20,000 nucleotides of DNA from an uncultured virus (IMG/VR IMGVR_UViG_3300025127_000026) (lineage: Duplodnaviria; Heunggongvirae; Uroviricota; Caudoviricetes; Crassvirales): IMG/VR virus record IMGVR_UViG_3300025127_000026; one strand, written 5' to 3'. Within the stretch, counting starts at the first letter, position 1. Each line of letters begins with the position of its first letter. A model generated the notes under the pieces. The model was not told the origin of the DNA and searched no databases. It saw nothing but the letters and a program-made list of their open reading frames with translations. Below, one piece after another: positions 1 through 17,241 of this stretch. The position numbers and the translations under genes are program-made.

Positions 1-54
1 TTGTCTTTTTTCTTTTCTACTAGGCTTGAAAGGATCTTTATCTTTTACTCGCAT
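1..54 (-). CDS. 5' end of basic hypothetical protein (runs off window)
   Basis: Manual translation from ATG at 54: MRVKDKDPFKPSRKEKRQ...; follows the 61-213 gene co-directionally. Confidence 0.55.
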   Translation of the reverse strand, partial: MRVKDKDPFKPSRKEKRQ

Positions 55-60
55 ATCTTT

Positions 61-213
61 TTATTTAAAAGCGTATAAAAATTCTCTTAATCCCATGCCA
101 AAAGCAATACCAGCATATAGTGAGTGAGAATGCATTATTAAAAGTAAACCAATTGCACCACACGCTATTGATTTAGATAATGGATGATTTACTATTTCTT
201 TTATTGTTTCCAT
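61..213 (-). CDS. small hydrophobic membrane protein, 50 aa (not in ORF track)
   Basis: Manual translation METIKEIVNHPLSKSIACGAIGLLLIMHSHSLYAGIAFGMGLREFLYAFK; fills the gap after 216-557. Confidence 0.7.
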   Translation of the reverse strand: METIKEIVNHPLSKSIACGAIGLLLIMHSHSLYAGIAFGMGLREFLYAFK

Positions 214-215
214 AA

Positions 216-557
216 TTATTTTCTAAATTGAGCTTCTTGGTTTATCATATATTTCTCCATATCATTACTTTTCGGATTGTTGAGTAATTGAAGTTTTCCC
301 GTTGGTGTTGTTGTTGTTGTTGGTGGTGCAAGTGCTTTTGCCGGATTAGCACTTGTAGTTGGTGCAGATGTAGAAGTTTTTGTTTTTGAATCAGAATCTC
401 TATCATCATCTTCGCAAGCACCAGGATTATCCCTACAAAATGCAGCATCACGTTGTGATTTAGCTTCATCAGCAAAAGCTTTCATGCTATCATTGAATTT
501 ATCAATCGCAATGTTAGCATCAGCTGGAGCTATATATTTAGGTTGTCTATAACTCAT
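216..557 (-). CDS. hypothetical protein with Thr/Pro-rich low-complexity segment
   Basis: ORF track; ATGA overlap with 554-802; PTTTTTTP tract. Confidence 0.75.
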   Translation of the reverse strand: MSYRQPKYIAPADANIAIDKFNDSMKAFADEAKSQRDAAFCRDNPGACEDDDRDSDSKTKTSTSAPTTSANPAKALAPPTTTTTPTGKLQLLNNPKSNDMEKYMINQEAQFRK

Positions 558-802
558 GATTTTCTATTTTTTAATTTACTACCTTTTTTCAACTCTGGAT
601 ACTTAGAATAAACACAGCTTTTAATAGCTTCAGGATTTTCAGCATTGTGCGCTAACTTTAAAGCAGACTTTGCTCTTCTTAAACTATTTACAGGGTATGT
701 TTCATCTGGTCCACAAAAATCTTGTTTTGATACATTATCGTATTTATATGCGTTTGATTTTCCTGGTTCTTCTCTAAGTTCTGTTAAGTTTTCTTTTTTC
801 AT
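554..802 (-). CDS. hypothetical phage protein
   Basis: ORF track; operon-like packing; YPVNS..RAKSAL..AH segment. Confidence 0.75.
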   Translation of the reverse strand: MKKENLTELREEPGKSNAYKYDNVSKQDFCGPDETYPVNSLRRAKSALKLAHNAENPEAIKSCVYSKYPELKKGSKLKNRKS

Positions 803-804
803 AA

Positions 805-960
805 TTACTTTTTATTATAAGGAAACATATTGTTTAATTTTTCTTTTCTTTTAGCGCAACCGCAACCACCAGGTATTTTATCAGCTAATTTTTTTATACC
901 AGTAGCTTTTGTAAATTTTTCAATACTATCTCCAAGTCCTGTTGATTTATTTGATTTCAT
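805..960 (-). CDS. small conserved phage protein (GLGD...CGC..R...LN type)
   Basis: ORF 805-993 trimmed to ATG at 960 (MKSNKSTGLGD...), 1 nt after the stop of the upstream gene; motif recognised from recurrent phage hypotheticals. Confidence 0.7.
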   Translation of the reverse strand: MKSNKSTGLGDSIEKFTKATGIKKLADKIPGGCGCAKRKEKLNNMFPYNKK

Positions 961-961
961 T

Positions 962-1237
962 TTATTTATCTTTTTTATTTTGTAATTTTCCATCTACCTC
1001 TCTACACCAAAACAATATTTCATCTACTTTTTCTTCTAAATCACTTATATGTTCGGTTTGCCATTGTTGTTTTAGATCATACTCAATACGATCTATAACT
1101 GCAGGTGGTAATTTTTTAGCATCTTCTATATCTGACTGCAATGTGTAATACATGCCAACAAACATTGAAGTAACTACTATTATACTTATTACAGTTTTTA
1201 TGTCAATTTTAAATTCTGTTCCTTCAGATATTTTCAT
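962..1237 (-). CDS. single-pass membrane protein with predicted helical/coiled-coil C-terminus (lysis-cassette associated)
   Basis: ORF 962-1306 trimmed to MKISEGTEF (ATG 1237, overlapping the amidase 3' end); hydrophobic VISIIVVTSMFVGMYY. Confidence 0.7.
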   Translation of the reverse strand: MKISEGTEFKIDIKTVISIIVVTSMFVGMYYTLQSDIEDAKKLPPAVIDRIEYDLKQQWQTEHISDLEEKVDEILFWCREVDGKLQNKKDK

Positions 1238-1637
1238 ATTCATTAGTAGCATCAAATGATGGACATGCTTTATTAGCAAAATCCTTGTGTGAATGTATTT
1301 TAGCACTTGGGTACATAGCTTTTAAAGTTCTAAGTACAGCAATTAATGCTTCTTTTTGACAATCAAGTCTAGTATCTTTGGGAGTCTTACCATCTGCTTC
1401 AACGCCTCCGCAATAGCATATACCAATCGAATTACGATTGTGCCCCTTCGTATGAGCTCCCATTTTAGCTATATCTCTACCTTTGTGTATTTCTCCATAT
1501 AGGTCGATATAGAAGTGGTAGCCAATATCGCTCCAGCCACGTCCTTCAACGTGCCATCTACGTATTTCAGCTACATCAAAATTTTCACCTTCTCTTGTCG
1601 CGGAGCAATGTACAATTATTTTATCAATCTGTCTCAT
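1224..1637 (-). CDS. endolysin, N-acetylmuramoyl-L-alanine amidase (Amidase_2, T7 lysozyme-like)
   Basis: IIVHCSAT, WSDIGYHF, GAHTKGHN..SIGICY, H.....KACPSFD zinc-amidase motifs. Confidence 0.95.
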   Translation of the reverse strand: MRQIDKIIVHCSATREGENFDVAEIRRWHVEGRGWSDIGYHFYIDLYGEIHKGRDIAKMGAHTKGHNRNSIGICYCGGVEADGKTPKDTRLDCQKEALIAVLRTLKAMYPSAKIHSHKDFANKACPSFDATNEYENI

Positions 1638-1783
1638 TTACCTTTTTTCATAATCCACCACTTGTGAGCAGTATAACCTATTGTCACAAGTAATAAAGTT
1701 ATTTTTAACATTGGTTCAAGCCAATCCATCATAGTTACTCCAAATGCACCTGCATTTAACAAGTATAATTTTAAATCTTCCAT
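1634..1783 (-). CDS. putative holin, 49 aa (not in ORF track)
   Basis: MEDLKLYLLNAGAFGVTMMDWLEPMLKITLLLVTIGYTAHKWWIMKKGK; hydrophobic helix plus basic tail; TGA overlaps the amidase ATG. Confidence 0.65.
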   Translation of the reverse strand: MEDLKLYLLNAGAFGVTMMDWLEPMLKITLLLVTIGYTAHKWWIMKKGK

Positions 1784-1784
1784 C

Positions 1785-1964
1785 TTACTGGTTGGCACGT
1801 AGTACTACGTTGCCTTTGTAGGGTATATTATCTATAGCTAGATCAGAAACAATATTCTTATCTCTTGACATCATTTTTCTTTCTCCTGCTGTTCCTTTGT
1901 AATAATTGTGATTACACATTTTCTTTTTACCCGCAGGCATTTGTTTTTCTCCGTAACTTGGCAT
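1785..1964 (-). CDS. small basic hypothetical protein, 59 aa (not in ORF track)
   Basis: Manual translation MPSYGEKQMPAGKKKMCNH...VVLRANQ; fills the gap between 1976 and the holin candidate. Confidence 0.65.
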   Translation of the reverse strand: MPSYGEKQMPAGKKKMCNHNYYKGTAGERKMMSRDKNIVSDLAIDNIPYKGNVVLRANQ

Positions 1965-1975
1965 AATATTTATTT

Positions 1976-2191
1976 TTAACTCATTTGTATAGGTTGTCCT
2001 GTAGAAGGATCTATTTCAGTTGTTCCACCTAACTGGTTGAACTTGGCTGTGGTAGAGTAAACAGGATTCATTGGTAAAGTACCTGCACCCGATATATCTT
2101 GATACTGCTGAAACGTTCTATTCATTTGTGGATCTTGTGCTGCTTGAGGCACGCCGCTAAGTATCTTGTTTGGTTTAGAATTATTAATCAT
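1976..2191 (-). CDS. hypothetical low-complexity (Q/P/G/T) protein
   Basis: ORF track; co-directional packing. Confidence 0.7.
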   Translation of the reverse strand: MINNSKPNKILSGVPQAAQDPQMNRTFQQYQDISGAGTLPMNPVYSTTAKFNQLGGTTEIDPSTGQPIQMS

Positions 2192-2209
2192 AATTTTTAT
2201 TTTTATTGA

Positions 2210-2638
2210 TTATCGCTTTTCAAGTAGTTGACCGTATGGTGTGTTAAATGTTTTAACTTCATAAGATTTTGGACCTTTTTTTCTTTGTTTACTCAAGTCT
2301 GTTTCGCTTAAACCAAAATCACTACCACCTAAATAATCACCTTCTTTAACTGGTAGTTTACCTGTAAATACAGTATCGCCAACAGCTGGCGTGTTTGCTC
2401 TTCCTCCAAAAGATCCTTCAGGAGCATTCATACCAGAAAATCCTGTCCAATCTGAATCAGAACCTTCTCCTCCATATATTCCATATAGCTTACCTTTGCT
2501 GTCTTTTTTTAACGCAGGCATACTTTCACCAGCCATTGTTTTACTTGGTGGATCCGTAGGTTTTTTGTTTCCTAACACATCAGTGCTTGTATTTTTAAAT
2601 TTATCAAAATCTTTTTGGTTATTTTTTCTTAGTGCCAT
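2210..2638 (-). CDS. hypothetical Gly/Lys-rich protein
   Basis: ORF track; co-directional packing. Confidence 0.75.
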   Translation of the reverse strand: MALRKNNQKDFDKFKNTSTDVLGNKKPTDPPSKTMAGESMPALKKDSKGKLYGIYGGEGSDSDWTGFSGMNAPEGSFGGRANTPAVGDTVFTGKLPVKEGDYLGGSDFGLSETDLSKQRKKGPKSYEVKTFNTPYGQLLEKR

Positions 2639-2643
2639 TTTTT

Positions 2644-2889
2644 TTATTTATATGATTTTTCATAATCACCCATATCATAATCATAATGATCTGTGCTTCC
2701 TGTTTCATGAAAACTATCTAAAGCACCTTTTTGTTCTTTAGTTAGTTTAGGAGAATTAAATTTATCTAGATCAGCTTGCCTTGTGTTATATTCATCTAAT
2801 TTAGCTTTTTGCTTTTTAGTTAAATTTTTCTTAGCTGCAAGTTTTTTCATACGTCTAGCTTTTCTATTTCCTTTTCCTAATTTACTCAT
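2644..2889 (-). CDS. small protein, basic N-terminus and acidic C-terminus
   Basis: ORF track; TAATG overlap with 2889-3317. Confidence 0.75.
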   Translation of the reverse strand: MSKLGKGNRKARRMKKLAAKKNLTKKQKAKLDEYNTRQADLDKFNSPKLTKEQKGALDSFHETGSTDHYDYDMGDYEKSYK

Positions 2890-3317
2890 TACCTTGTTTT
2901 ATCTTTATTTACGTTGTTTATGGAAGTTTTTAAAACAACGTCCATATAATTACTTTTAAGTCTTTTGCTAGGCATATCTTCTTCGCCTAGCATAATTCGG
3001 TACATACGACTAATTAACTGTTTACACTTTGTAGAAACTTTATATATATTGTATTTCTGTGTTGTTCTATTTCGTTCTCTCCAAACTACTATCCAACCAC
3101 TTTTCAACAACCTGTTCCAGCGTCTGTTATCCCAGCTGTATGAGTACGTACCGGTTTTAAAATCTTGTTTTGTAAATAAATTTACTGCTTCTAAATATAT
3201 TAATAATTCTAAATCAGCGTCATTTAAGTTATTTGTTTTGCAAGCCCACTTGCGTATTATTCTATAATGTTTAAGTAAATTTAATTCTCTAAGATCACTT
3301 GACGTGAGCTTTCTCAT
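2889..3317 (-). CDS. hypothetical protein, possible winged-helix DNA-binding fold
   Basis: LNDADLELLIYL...WNRLLKSGWIV...YNIYKVSTK pattern resembles MarR-like winged HTH (inference). Confidence 0.55.
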   Translation of the reverse strand: MRKLTSSDLRELNLLKHYRIIRKWACKTNNLNDADLELLIYLEAVNLFTKQDFKTGTYSYSWDNRRWNRLLKSGWIVVWRERNRTTQKYNIYKVSTKCKQLISRMYRIMLGEEDMPSKRLKSNYMDVVLKTSINNVNKDKTR

Positions 3318-4689: not shown

Positions 4690-4950
4690 TTATATTACTA
4701 TTACTATATCTTGCTCTTTGATAACTTTGAACATTTTATCTTTTATTTCAATATTAAAACCAGCGTGCCTATCATAATATATTTTATCACCAGATTTTAA
4801 TAATGTTACATCAGAACCTGGGTTTAACACCTCAGCTTTTTGATATCTTATATCTTCTCTTTGTTTATCAGACAAAAGTAAACCACCTTTTGTTTTAGTA
4901 GTTTTTTCTTGCAATTCTTTTATTACTATATATTTACCTACTGCTTTCAT
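4690..4950 (-). CDS. groES: co-chaperonin GroES (Cpn10)
   Basis: 86 aa; mobile loop KTKGGLLL, LKSGDKIYY, VIKEQDIVIVI; overlaps the groEL 3' end. Confidence 0.92.
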   Translation of the reverse strand: MKAVGKYIVIKELQEKTTKTKGGLLLSDKQREDIRYQKAEVLNPGSDVTLLKSGDKIYYDRHAGFNIEIKDKMFKVIKEQDIVIVI

Positions 4951-6487
4951 TTGCTCTCAAATTATTGATTACACAATCAGTTGATAAAATCGTGGTTGCT
5001 ACTGAAGCCGCGTTTTTTAAAGCGCTTTTAGTAACGAGTAGTGGATCTATTATTCCGGCTTTTACCATATCCACGGAATTTCCTGTAACCACGTCTAATC
5101 CTAATCCTTCGTCTTCGCTTTTGGTATTTGTTATACCTGCATTTTTTAAAATAGTATCATATGGCGATGTTATAGCTTTTAATAATACTTTTTCTCCTTC
5201 AGATTCAGGTTTTATATTTTGTGAAGCATTTAGCAAAGCTATTCCTCCACCTGGAACTATACCTTCCTTTATCGCGGCTTTTGTAGCACATATAGCATCT
5301 TCAACTCTATCTTTTTTTTCTTTTAATTCTACTTCTGAATTAGCTCCTACTTTAACAATAGCAACTTTACCTGTTAATCTAGCTATTCTTTTTTCTATTT
5401 GTGTAACTAATGTAGGATTTGAAGTTTCTTTTATTTGTTGTTTTAAATCATTGATAATTTCATCAATATCTTCAGAAAAATAATCTCTTTGTATAATGGT
5501 TTCAGCTGAATTACTTACTGCTTTCAAGCAACTACCTAGATGGTCTTCAGTGATCATTTCCATATCATCACCTAAATCTTCATTTATAATAGTAGCACCT
5601 GTAATTAAAGATAAATCTTTTAAAGTGTTTAATTTATTTACCCCATATGTAGGAGCTTGTATAACGTTGACTTTAATATTACCTTTTATTTTGTTCATAG
5701 CTAATGCAGACGAGACACTTGGTTCTACATCTCCAATTATTAATAATGCCTTATTTCTTTTTATAACATGTTCTAATACAGATTGTATTTGTCTAATGTT
5801 TTCAATTTTGTTTTCTACTAAAAGAACTAATGCATTATCTAATTCTGCTACACCTGTATCTTGATTTGTTATAAAATGAGGATTTAAAATTCCTTTTTCA
5901 TATTGAGCACCATCTACTACTTCTACTGTTGTTTCAGCTAAATCATGTGTTTCCATCATTACTATGCCTGTTTCGTCAACAGCTTTAAATGCATTAGCAA
6001 TAATTTCTCCAAGTTTTTTATCATTATTAGCCGATATAGAAGCAACTTGGTTTATCGATTTACCTGAAACTTTTTTAGACTTTTTCTCTAAATATTTAAC
6101 AACTTTGTCTACACAAGAATTTATACCTTCTTTTATTTCTCTGGTGTTGTTATTTGCTAAGTTTTCATATGCAGTATTAAGTATAGCATGTGCTAATACT
6201 GTAGCTGTAGTTGTACCATCTCCAGCTTCTTTTACTGTTTTTCTTGCAGCTTCTTTTAATAATTTAGCTCCCATGTTTTCAACTGGATCTAATAATATTA
6301 TACTATCAGCCACTGTTACACCGTCTTTTGTTATTTGCGGATTTCCTAAACTATCTTCAAGTATTACACACTTGCCGCTAGCTCCTAATGTGGAGCTAAC
6401 AGCTTTAGTAAGTTTTTCAATACCTTTAAAAATAGTTTCTTTTGCATCTTTACCGAAGTTAAGATGTTTAACTATTGTTTCGTTCAT
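4934..6487 (-). CDS. groEL: chaperonin GroEL (Cpn60), phage-type
   Basis: ITKDGVTVA, AGDGTTTATVLA, ISANND, KKDRVEDA, EGIVPGGG, GIIDP; 517 aa with no GGM tail. Confidence 0.97.
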   Translation of the reverse strand: MNETIVKHLNFGKDAKETIFKGIEKLTKAVSSTLGASGKCVILEDSLGNPQITKDGVTVADSIILLDPVENMGAKLLKEAARKTVKEAGDGTTTATVLAHAILNTAYENLANNNTREIKEGINSCVDKVVKYLEKKSKKVSGKSINQVASISANNDKKLGEIIANAFKAVDETGIVMMETHDLAETTVEVVDGAQYEKGILNPHFITNQDTGVAELDNALVLLVENKIENIRQIQSVLEHVIKRNKALLIIGDVEPSVSSALAMNKIKGNIKVNVIQAPTYGVNKLNTLKDLSLITGATIINEDLGDDMEMITEDHLGSCLKAVSNSAETIIQRDYFSEDIDEIINDLKQQIKETSNPTLVTQIEKRIARLTGKVAIVKVGANSEVELKEKKDRVEDAICATKAAIKEGIVPGGGIALLNASQNIKPESEGEKVLLKAITSPYDTILKNAGITNTKSEDEGLGLDVVTGNSVDMVKAGIIDPLLVTKSALKNAASVATTILSTDCVINNLRANESSR

Positions 6488-11016: not shown

Positions 11017-11043
11017 ATACGATATAGTAACGATATTAATAAT
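11007..11043 (+). promoter_or_regulatory. repeated phage promoter-like motif, copy 3
   Basis: tgtcaacTAAATACGA-tatagtaac-GATATT. Confidence 0.7.
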
Positions 11044-11888: not shown

Positions 11889-11977
11889 AAATAACTAATA
11901 AGCAATTTAATATAATAACAATAATGATAGCAACTATGTTACTAATAGAATTAATAAAAGTAGCTACATTTATATAA
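11885..11977 (+). CDS. 30 aa single-TM microprotein (not in ORF track)
   Basis: MKITNKQFNIITIMIATMLLIELIKVATFI; ATGA overlap. Confidence 0.6.
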   Translation: MKITNKQFNIITIMIATMLLIELIKVATFI

Positions 11978-11987
11978 CTTAAATAAT

Positions 11988-14491: not shown

Positions 14492-14659
14492 ATGAATACA
14501 ATAAAAACACATACAGCAGATCGATCAAAAGTAACAATAACCAAAATAATCGATGGTAAAACAGAGAAAAGAACTTATAAAGGTTATACTATAAATAATA
14601 TACCAGAAGAGTGTAATCACTGGTTCAACTACAAAGGTTTGACTTTTGTAATAAACTAA
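14492..14659 (+). CDS. 55 aa hypothetical protein (not in ORF track)
   Basis: MNTIKTHTADRSKVT...WFNYKGLTFVIN; starts at the fixed motif distance. Confidence 0.75.
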   Translation: MNTIKTHTADRSKVTITKIIDGKTEKRTYKGYTINNIPEECNHWFNYKGLTFVIN

Positions 14660-14737
14660 AAACCACGACTTCAACACACCGTGTCGTAGCGGTGAAGAAG
14701 ACAAACAGTGGGGTTGAGTGACGGCTCAGCTTGGACA

Positions 14738-14839
14738 GCGAGGTCAGGTTTAATAATGAGATATAGGTTAAGCGGAAGACACACCTAGCGTTATTAATGA
14801 CTGTTCTAGACATGAGAGGTTCGACTCCTCTCTCTCGCT
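14738..14839 (+). ncRNA. tRNA-like structured RNA (acceptor stem plus T-arm, atypical body)
   Basis: T-arm AGAGG-TTCGACT-CCTCT (14815-14831); GCGAGG (14738) pairs with TCTCGC (14833-14838); internal TTAATAATG/CGTTATTAA and TAGGT/ACCTA helices; no canonical D or anticodon arm. Confidence 0.6.
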
Positions 14840-14841
14840 CT

Positions 14842-14976
14842 ATGAAAACAATAAAAGTAACTATGAAGGAAATATACGACGCTATGCGTCCTTCAGTGCA
14901 GAAAAATAAAAAGAAGTACACACGCAAAACTAAACACAAGAAAAATGGCGAAGAAAAGAACTATAAACGAACTTAG
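14842..14976 (+). CDS. 44 aa basic peptide, ArfA-like motif (not in ORF track)
   Basis: MKTIKVTMKEIYDAMRPSVQKNKKKYTRKTKHKKNGEEKNYKRT. Confidence 0.6.
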   Translation: MKTIKVTMKEIYDAMRPSVQKNKKKYTRKTKHKKNGEEKNYKRT

Positions 14977-16626: not shown

Positions 16627-16852
16627 AGGCATGATATATACAAAAGGTGAGAAAGTTCAAAACCCTTTTTCAGGTGAAAGTTATGAGCTAACTGGTTTAG
16701 AACTAAGCATTTACGACTTTATTATAGGTTGTCAAATGGTTTTTGACTCAGCACCTAATACTATGACAAATAAAAGAATAACTGAATTTCAAAAAGCATT
16801 GAACTGGTTTAGGGTGAATAACCCTGAAGCATACTACGTGTTGTTAGATTAG
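16580..16852 (+). CDS. hypothetical phage protein
   Basis: ORF track; V.NPFSGE...L...E.SIYDFI.G...WFR.NNP.AY..LLD. Confidence 0.8.
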   Translation: MNSKKLKKPTAPKWFKGMIYTKGEKVQNPFSGESYELTGLELSIYDFIIGCQMVFDSAPNTMTNKRITEFQKALNWFRVNNPEAYYVLLD

Positions 16853-16866
16853 TAGTAGTTTAGTTT

Positions 16867-17035
16867 CCGCGAATAAGCGCGTGAGATGTGTAGAATAGCA
16901 ACTGCTCTGAATGTCAGACTTTCGAGTCCATCATCAGGACTATTCATCTTACTCACTTGGCAAGCTCGTACTTAAGATACCTCAGTCATGGCTGTATAGC
17001 TATATGAAGCGGGTGACGGTACGGGCTATTCGTGG
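16867..17035 (+). ncRNA. putative multi-stem structured RNA, ~170 nt
   Basis: Closing helix CCGCGAATAAGC/GCTATTCGTGG; GTGAG/CTCAC; GAATAG/CTATTC; GACT-TTCG-AGTC; CGTAC/GTACG; GC-richer than flanks. Confidence 0.6.
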
Positions 17036-17036
17036 T

Positions 17037-17234
17037 ATGAAACAATTCTTAAAATTTACAGTAATATGGATAAGTCAAAACTTAGCAACTCCATTTTGGA
17101 TTGTAGGTCATATACACTTATCTGTTAATGTATACAAAGATATTTACGAAATACTAAGCTCTATAGGTTTAAATATTATAGTAGCAATAGGTTTTTATAT
17201 AGATTATAAAACAAATACGAATACTAATAGATAA
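17037..17234 (+). CDS. small membrane protein, 65 aa
   Basis: ORF 16911-17234 trimmed to MKQFLKFTVIWISQNL...; two hydrophobic segments. Confidence 0.7.
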   Translation: MKQFLKFTVIWISQNLATPFWIVGHIHLSVNVYKDIYEILSSIGLNIIVAIGFYIDYKTNTNTNR

Positions 17235-17241
17235 TATTAAT
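17205..17241 (+). promoter_or_regulatory. repeated phage promoter-like motif, copy 8 (leaderless geometry)
   Basis: tataaaacAAATACGA-atactaata-GATAAT-attaat-ATG(17242). Confidence 0.8.

Follow-up and report, generated by a model that had tools for sequence, protein, structure and literature searches.

A GC-rich structured element between two + strand genes

The DNA analysed here, to which we refer as the window, is a stretch of 20,000 nucleotides (nt) from an uncultured virus placed in the Crassvirales (IMG/VR record IMGVR_UViG_3300025127_000026). Directly ahead of the gene for a small hydrophobic protein, at positions 16867 to 17036 of the + strand, it carries a GC-rich structured element that, judged by comparison with related sequences, is a real, uncatalogued feature with a well supported core. 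The window is a low-GC (~30%) phage segment in which late-type genes, one for a GroEL-like protein among them, occupy the - strand up to ~9900, and the + strand after ~9900 holds small, close-set genes with an ATP-dependent DNA ligase and a DNA-binding protein last. The original prediction of this element, made from the letters of the window, had remarked on the near absence of intergenic space, and the + strand open reading frames (ORFs) between 11351 and 19500 are indeed tightly packed, the largest gaps being that of the element, a twin at 14660-14841, and 99 nt at 11889-11987. The GC content is 0.40-0.43 at the element against about 0.30 in its flanks, and it reaches 0.45-0.47 at 14600-14824, the site of the twin, which is the first of the two GC-rich elements in the window. 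The parts of the element and its surroundings are given below, where handles beginning with L denote loci of relatives and aa stands for amino acids.

16853-16866, + strand: conserved AU-rich 5' flank TAGTAGTTTAGTTT, after the stop codon of a 90-aa ORF and with further stop codons inside.
16867-16874, + strand: P1 5' strand CCGCGAAT (lower or closing helix), which pairs with 17028-17035 in the minimum free energy (MFE) fold and in the consensus fold of five long forms.
16877-16961, + strand: arm 1, an optional insert on the 5' side of the internal loop, missing from minimal forms.
16895-16943, + strand: apical module of arm 1 with the GACT-TTCG-AGTC hairpin, identical in 48 of 49 nt to L017 3822-3870.
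16963-16972, + strand: 5' strand of arm 2 (the upper helix), AGCTCGTACT, conserved in every family copy.
16973-17017, + strand: insert in the apical loop of arm 2 (ACC/GGT, CAT/ATG, GGCT-GTAT-AGCT), common only to the window, L011 and L001.
17018-17027, + strand: 3' strand of arm 2, GGTACGGGCT, recognised by pairing and by a conserved U-G in GCTC/GGGC.
17028-17036, + strand: P1 3' strand ATTCGTGG plus a single spacer T, the invariant 3' end of the family, at most 1 base from arm 2 in every copy seen.
17037-17234, + strand: true ORF of the 65-aa hydrophobic protein (MKQFLKF...), which begins at the same MK(Q/R)F in L001, L011 and L013.
17207-17241, + strand: promoter- or leader-like motif, a repeat within the window, which ends at the ATG of ORF 17242 and forms the other conserved seam of the gene cassette.

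The element had been described as an RNA of about 170 nt with several stems enclosed by a long-range helix. The closing helix lies as proposed, with CCGCGAATAAGC at 16867-16878 and GCTATTCGTGG at 17025-17035, and the single base T17036 separates it from the ATG at 17037-17039. Likewise, the arm sequences are all found, CGTAC at 16967-16971 and GTACG at 17019-17023 together with GTGAG/CTCAC, CTGA/TCAG, GACT-TTCG-AGTC and GGCT-GTAT-AGCT. The unconstrained MFE structure of 16853-17045 on the + strand is a three-way junction formed by the closing helix and both arms, and it contains nearly all of the proposed sub-helices, the exception being GAATAG/CTATTC, which appears in a 4-bp version only. When compared with shuffled sequences, which averaged -49.5, the + strand folded at -58.8 kcal/mol (z -2.18; 7 of 200 shuffles did as well), whereas the - strand reached a z of -1.04 (33 of 200 as good); folding energy alone thus gives a modest signal.

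A 107-aa ORF opens at 16911 inside the element, and it is an artefact, as the suspicion of a false N-terminal extension had implied, the conserved start being 17037. The in-frame open stretch before MK(Q/R)F measures 23-32 codons, differs from relative to relative and has no shared start codon, so the frame from 16911 is not conserved, and compensatory changes, described below, are present in the helices; the refuting condition set for the original prediction therefore does not apply. Since such false N-terminal extensions swallow both elements of the window, automatic annotation of these regions calls for caution.

The conserved unit of the family

We collected relatives by searching IMG/VR with the two flanking proteins, which yielded 19 loci. 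Near full-length matches to the element are confined to L011/L002 (83% over 187 nt) and L001 (76% over 189 nt); all other relatives keep just its first 20-33 nt and its last 20-29 nt. The slot after the orthologue of the 90-aa gene holds nothing in L018, a bare hairpin of ~43 nt in L009, a hairpin with one added arm in L008, L005 and L010, and, in the window, L001, L011, L012-L015 and L017, a hairpin that bears arms and is accompanied by at least one additional gene, or tandem copies. When IMG/VR was scanned for exact matches to the 15-nt 3' end, 122 were obtained in 119 loci. GTAY stands directly upstream in 51 of them, which are clearly the same element; the other 71 are mostly chance matches in unrelated, often GC-rich contigs, along with about a dozen diverged members that have other upper-stem sequences. 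All loci taken together hold 55 distinct copies, two of which are chance matches in bacterial contigs, leaving 53 genuine ones. A scan with the last 7 nt left free returned 49 matches, 36 ending in CGTGGTA and the remainder consisting of L284, L312 and 11 unrelated sequences or plain terminators. The homologue search in IMG/VR, which the original prediction had named as a way to check it, has therefore brought out a family of 53 genuine copies with a covarying upper helix.

Every hairpin-bearing locus has in common the sequence CCRCGAA ... AGCTCRTAC ... GTAYGGGCT(T/A)TTCGTGGTA. Read as RNA, this core comprises the lower helix P1 (CCRCGAA/UUCGUGG), an internal loop, and the upper helix (AGCUCRUAC/GUAYGGGCU), with one invariant 3' strand. 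All eight minimal natural forms (44-49 nt) fold as P1, internal loop and upper helix, with energies of -15 to -26 kcal/mol and z scores of -4.0 to -6.5, and none of 200 shuffles folds as well. In the set of 19 short copies, pairing of the upper helix reaches 93.4%, and four of its nine pairs are altered on both sides; one position has G-C, A-U or U-A, and some copies have an entirely different stem (GGCAC/GUGUC, AGUAU/AUACU). Its covariation score was reached by none of 500 shuffles, and slid registers pair only to 31-47%. The apical loops of this helix vary (UCAAAAG, UUAACCG, UGUAAAUA and others). Comparison of the copies thus shows that what the family conserves is a two-stem hairpin of about 42-47 nt, of which the element of the window is one decorated copy.

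For P1 the evidence is of a different form, since the search fixed the 3' strand and the helix was judged on its 5' strand alone. Changes in that strand (C to U, A to G) keep the pairing as U-G and G-U, and in the five long forms one P1 pair is A-U in three copies and G-U in two; that the changes are mostly one-sided follows from sampling with a fixed 3' strand. Constrained folding for the P1 partner was unreliable, with 17 of 52 copies giving no result and several pairing far upstream, and only clear cases were used. The 3' strand is invariant in sequence and not in pairing alone.

The conserved U-G pair in GCUC/GGGC occurs in 17 of the 19 short copies, and, like the P1 wobbles, it would be an A-C mismatch on the other strand, which places the structure in the + strand RNA (or in + strand single-stranded DNA). 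By this comparison it is not a symmetrical DNA site, and the proposal of a structured + strand element acting at the RNA level is borne out by strand-specific pairs and compensatory changes. The comparative evidence puts the core far beyond chance, yet the arms are unconserved. Outside the core, the AU-rich 5' flank is found ahead of 20 of the 55 distinct copies, and the genes upstream of it are of at least two kinds.

Swappable arms and recurring modules

The consensus fold of the five long forms keeps P1 and the bases of both arms, and between these bases the sequences are unrelated or missing. Inserts are confined to two places, one lying after the P1 5' strand and ahead of the upper helix and the other in the apical loop of that helix, and they never interrupt the 3' strand, in which the upper-helix strand, at most one base, and the P1 strand follow one another. 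The inserted modules are hairpins, and the same modules recur in other combinations, one of them occupying the arm-2 loop in L083 and L101 but, in L127, the site of arm 1. The base of arm 1 (GC..GTGAG / CTCAC..GC) is common to the window, L001, L011, L005 and L056, its top being replaced in each, and the apical loop of arm 2 has in other copies 5-8 nt or a different hairpin. The counterpart of the arm-1 module in L017 is part of the middle copy of three tandem family copies, and the flanking protein of that locus is only 64% identical. Moreover, in a DNA run with the phage of the window, one contig (depth 10) joins 16873 to 17016, skipping 142 nt (16874-17015), which suggests that arm-less or arm-replaced variants may coexist in the same community.

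The 170-nt RNA of the original prediction therefore holds as a fold but does not hold as a discrete conserved unit, as relatives keep only the ends and the two basal helices. An undescribed phage non-coding RNA (ncRNA) or ribozyme had been put forward, which at about 170 nt would be a free-standing, trans-acting RNA or a self-cleaving one. The multi-stem fold with its UUCG-type loops would suit such an RNA, as would some family modules that keep their loops while their stems covary. However, only ~45 nt are conserved, arm 1 and the top of arm 2 are swapped for unrelated hairpins or are absent in close relatives, no promoter-like motif lies ahead of the element, and none of 4227 Rfam models, known small ribozymes included, came near threshold for it. 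Because the arms are replaced or absent and the minimal natural forms measure only 40-47 nt, we regard a ribozyme or conserved multi-stem ncRNA as very improbable.

A further explanation would deny the element any RNA function, its ends being recombination seams and its hairpin modules selfish or neutral passengers. Modules do recur across copies, slots and arms (16895-16943 in L017; L083/L101 versus L127), different gene cassettes lie between the element and the downstream motif, and a variant seen in a single contig lacks 16874-17015. Nevertheless, the copies are few, in fixed slots and in one orientation, neither terminal duplications nor a transposase were seen, and strand-specific G-U pairs, compensatory changes, UUCG and GNRA loops and the fixed spacing to the AUG point to selection on an RNA, so that we consider this explanation improbable.

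As a separate observation, a module of ~48 nt with two small hairpins was found in L013, L011 (its second copy), L017, L029, L109, L121 and L126, inside family copies or just 5' of them. Its loops are conserved (GAGTGTG and the A-rich ACCyAAAAACAwA), its stems show compensating changes, and it matches no Rfam family.

Start codons and a promoter-like motif downstream

In 38 of the 53 genuine copies the A of the conserved GGTA is the A of the ATG, and in four more the ATG comes 2 nt further on, giving 42 of 53 with an ATG 0-2 nt past the conserved end. The genes whose start codons adjoin the 3' end number at least seven and are unrelated to one another; in other copies the 3' end adjoins a promoter-like motif. 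The 65-aa gene is itself a cassette, present or absent among relatives. It sits in the window exactly between the element 3' end and the downstream motif, and in L008, L009 and L005, where it is absent, the element is joined directly to that motif. Altogether 0, 1 or 2 different ORFs intervene between element and motif (L008, L009, L005, the window, L001, L012-L015). Of the three options that had been offered for the element (ncRNA, ribozyme, or processing or regulatory leader), the last fits best; its proposed tie to the membrane protein gene does not survive the variety of downstream genes.

The motif, of 35-40 nt, reads TACAAAyTAAATACGAAnAnTAAnnGATnATAwwAAT and is repeated in the window:

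11018, 12369, 12831, 14466, 15378 and 17216, + strand: six copies of the motif, with a fixed spacing of 26 nt from TACGA to the ATG.

These copies end in the ORF ATGs 12395, 12857, 14492, 15404 and 17242, the fit being looser near 11018, and the motif is likely a phage promoter or leader. Its core presumably recalls promoters of the T7 group. A search of five relatives for a T7-like RNA polymerase (PF00940) found no match, which is uninformative, since control genomes gave none either. Within 16853-17036 there is no strong sigma-70-like site on the + strand.

The closeness of the helix to the start codon raises the possibility of a translational gate or operator, in which P1 would bury the region 5' of the AUG until it is opened or until a phage protein bound to the 3' strand releases it. 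P1 ends 1 nt before the AUG in the 38 copies with the tightest spacing, the 3' strand is invariant beyond what pairing would require, and the A-rich context that precedes other genes of the window is missing ahead of the genes that follow the element. On the other hand, no candidate binding protein was identified, five copies precede the promoter-like motif instead of a start codon, and between the upstream stop codon and P1 there are 14 nt, so that a ribosome terminating there would probably be too distant to melt the helix. We judge such a gate unlikely.

Resemblance to intrinsic terminators

An attenuating intrinsic terminator is another possible reading. The upper helix and the UUUU behind it would partly stop transcription at the end of an early unit, and P1 would form only in read-through RNA. 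A stable GC-rich stem of 9-10 bp is present and is followed directly by UUUU in most copies, and, as in an extended Rho-independent terminator, an upstream strand pairs with the strand on the U side to lengthen the stem. In five of 53 copies the promoter-like motif comes directly afterwards, the classical order of terminator then promoter. Three other low-GC viral contigs (L280, L293, L322) carry the same 8-bp stem, GCTCATAC/GTATGGGC, followed by seven T's, and L312 has six T's with a CCAA/TTGG lower helix; a terminator scan scores the stem with seven T's as a terminator and flags L280, and the family core may be derived from an ordinary terminator hairpin. Passages of Arbiol et al. (2010, PMC2839356) ascribe such termination to stem-loops of T4-type phages.

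The same consensus scan, which asks for at least five T's in the 8 nt after the stem, nevertheless flags neither the window copy nor the minimal copy of L062. The U run has only four members and is broken in the window (CUAUUCG), the invariant CGUGGUA that follows it, the conserved P1 and the AUG 0-2 nt on without an intervening promoter (42 of 53) are left unexplained, and a tRNA, which can occupy the same slot, does not terminate. Attenuation is thus in our estimate possible, though somewhat unlikely, and it ranks second among the mechanisms considered.

Fixed slots shared with tRNA-type RNAs

The twin element of the window occupies another slot of the same region:

14660-14841, + strand: sister element, ending 2 nt before the ATG at 14842.

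It is hidden in a false ORF extension from 14797, and its whole-element fold has a z of -1.51. Its last 69 nt align weakly with tRNA-Sec over the acceptor and the T arm, the loop of which reads GGTTCGACTCC (16.2 bits; E 0.91 when 221 nt were searched). This first slot, after the orthologue of ORF 14492-14659, holds a family copy in many relatives and a different element in the window. The ends of the two window elements are 2.2 kb apart, which matches the slot spacing of 2.3 kb in the 68-kb relative G002. True tRNA-Met genes (CAT) stand in the slot of the window's element at L016 3274-3347 and L019 3422-3496, and L019 701-792, about the site of the window's first element, gave a sub-threshold tmRNA-like match (35.8 bits vs 47). 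A comparison of slot contents across relatives shows that a hairpin element, a tRNA-like element and a true tRNA replace one another at fixed positions.

In mitochondrial genomes and phage tRNA clusters, tRNAs punctuate polycistronic transcripts. The element resembles them as a compact structured RNA between coding regions with an AUG directly after it, in the order of its strands, and in the true tRNA-Met and tRNA-like elements that take its slots in relatives; it differs in having neither a T-loop motif nor an anticodon arm. At a stretch, the core could even be a tRNA-surrogate minihelix, excised from the early transcript by host RNase P, acting at its 5' base, and by RNase Z or a similar enzyme, acting a single base beyond its 3' end, a reading that we hold to be a long shot. 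If true, the tRNA surrogate would release leaderless or near-leaderless mRNAs for accessory cassettes, and the swappable arms would represent cargo that is released in the form of stable small RNAs, for example as decoys against host defences; cargo of this kind would explain the rapid turnover of arms in a region full of small accessory genes.

Searches against known families

The original prediction had recognised no known family, and in Rfam 15 the whole window gave 0 matches at the gathering thresholds. For 16850-17050 at E<=10 the best hit was an archaeal C/D-box model on the - strand (17.1 bits vs 38), and a CRISPR-repeat match of 13.5 bits was far below threshold and on the wrong strand. 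In further searches neither of the two elements reached an Rfam threshold, 20 related loci returned only two true tRNAs and one sub-threshold tmRNA-like match, and ARAGORN found no tRNA in the window. A tRNA or tRNA-like identity of the element was rejected, as no tRNA-clan model matched 16850-17050 at E<=10, the loops vary and only the strand order is similar. A small ribozyme was likewise rejected on the features tested.

Several DNA-level or promoter identities were also rejected. Passages of PMC4496689 and PMC9163698 give the N4-type hairpin promoter a 5-7-bp stem, a conserved 3-nt loop and a start 11-14 nt from the loop centre; the loops here have 5-8 nt or inserts of >40 nt and are unconserved, and the template strand would have an A-C mismatch where the RNA has the U-G pair. 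An integron attC site is similar only in its conserved ends around a variable centre. The gain of the 65-aa cassette adds no second element copy (window vs L008), and scans of window proteins, 15 against Pfam and 15 against PHROGs, showed no integrase. Mobile repeats of the miniature inverted-repeat transposable element (MITE) or repetitive extragenic palindrome and bacterial interspersed mosaic element (REP-BIME) kinds do not fit the few copies, single orientation and fixed slots.

Processing as the tentatively favoured mechanism

We consider it highly probable that the element is a cis-acting, RNA-level intercistronic element of this family. As to how it would act, endonucleolytic processing ranks as the most likely of the mechanisms weighed here, and on our analysis we favour it tentatively. 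The element would be transcribed within a polycistronic early message and act there as punctuation. A host endonuclease would cut the invariant 3' side, in the manner of RNase III within the internal loop or at the base of P1, or alternatively in the manner of RNase P or RNase Z, as on a tRNA minihelix. The hairpin would be left at the 3' end of the upstream message and stabilise it, the AUG that follows would be freed from P1 with little or no leader, and the conserved ends might double as seams for the exchange of small gene cassettes between related phages.

Support for punctuation comes from the interchange with tRNA-type RNAs and from the order of strands, which runs acceptor, variable arms, T arm, acceptor. 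In all eight minimal forms an internal loop separates two stems, as in RNase III-type signals, and single-strand cuts by RNase III at internal loops leave stabilising 3' hairpins, five such signals punctuating the T7 early precursor, as passages of Nicholson (2014, PMC3867540) describe.

Several observations weigh against processing of this kind. Over its two stems the core totals only 14-17 bp, below the idealised RNase III substrate, which has 22 bp in the same passages. The apical loop does not have the form of a T loop, and at E<=10 no match to the tRNA model was obtained. Variants altered on both sides of P1 are single cases only, L284 having a CGTGTTA 3' end with a matching change in the 5' strand and L312 having TTGG opposite CCAA. 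Eleven of the 53 copies are not immediately followed by an ATG, five of these preceding the promoter-like motif and two a tandem copy, while three have their ATG 15-17 nt further downstream and one leads into other sequence. The RNA runs that contain the region (X3, X6) consist of oligo-dT contigs, which cannot show ends, strand or level; these contigs include portions of the flanking genes and break off within the element or next to it. Finally, the slot could be a mere permissive site that collects tRNAs and hairpins.

Relation to known phage signals

Intercistronic signals that divide early transcripts are well known in T7, as RNase III sites, and in T4-type phages, as promoter-early stem-loop (PeSL) cassettes, but they are essentially uncharted in uncultured ocean phages. 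Read from the sequence, the start sites here are without the G-rich Shine-Dalgarno words of those two models. The closest systems to the element are, in behaviour, the PeSL cassettes and, in anatomy, the T7 RNase III signals. As described in passages of Arbiol et al. (2010, PMC2839356), PeSL cassettes are repeated intergenic stem-loops between small early ORFans, each extending from the upstream stop codons as far as the start codon that follows; they are found where the genome is most plastic, act as seams for the swapping of gene cassettes, contain a sigma-70-type promoter and a Shine-Dalgarno site, and number ~50 per genome. The family agrees with the parts of this account that concern setting, its stem-loop too being found at junctions of gene insertion and replacement. 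In contrast, it has no internal promoter or ribosome site, and strong copies are few in each complete relative. A host-type early promoter would find no room between helix and ATG in 42 of 53 copies, the helix reaches the AUG, and the stem-loop bears swappable nested hairpins.

With the T7 early RNase III signals of PMC3867540, as far as its passages describe them, the element has in common its two stems with an internal loop between them and its place between the cistrons of a polycistronic early mRNA, where a cut in one strand would give the upstream message a stabilising 3' hairpin and the next message a new 5' end. It differs in that its helices are shorter than two turns and many copies are three-way junctions; the likeness is one of anatomy.

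We conclude that the element is best seen as a variant of the punctuation or regulatory cassettes that phages place between cistrons, and not as a new RNA class. Its compact, strongly covarying 45-nt core, its one-base spacing to the AUG, its natural exchange with tRNA-type RNAs and its variants from bare to heavily decorated offer a comparative series on how messages are cut, ended and opened.

Distribution and copy number

From the loci collected, the family is located in early and middle operons of a clade of uncultured, low-GC marine phages with genomes of about 55-68 kb. Five relatives, four of them >=94% complete, contain 1-4 exact 3'-end copies each, all on the gene strand of the early region. 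A covariance model of the family (R1) gave 1-6 matches per relative at E<=1, at the same places as the exact copies and at a few weak ones. All strong matches face the gene orientation in fixed slots of the early region, and only 1-2 per relative are left once the duplicated end of G002 is collapsed. Since the contig of G002 ends in a diverged duplicate of its own start, its four copies come down to two slots, separated by 2.3 kb. In the window, R1 detected no second copy, and it scored the known one at only 14.7 bits because of its large inserts.

A blastn search of both element regions against 50,697 phage records found no match, tblastn with the ligase and a 587-aa protein found no close cultured relative, and the nearest record, G001, covers neither element. 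A loose gapped pattern returned 120 loci, almost all of them chance matches, and a scan of bacterial genomes gave six matches with no host signal, namely four in short phage-like contigs binned into metagenome-assembled genomes (MAGs) and two by chance in GC-rich genomes.

Three observations lie outside the element. In G002, 65026-68054 duplicates 1-3028, exact over only 127 nt, which inflates the repeat counts of that record; the duplicate is probably two strain variants joined in assembly. The same record contains at 43516-52641 an ORF of 3041 aa that matches no PHROG, Pfam or PDB sequence and is possibly a giant virion protein. The GroEL-like protein of the window is a phage-encoded GroEL-type chaperonin, encoded at 4934-6487 on the - strand (Cpn60_TCP1, E 5.6e-58).

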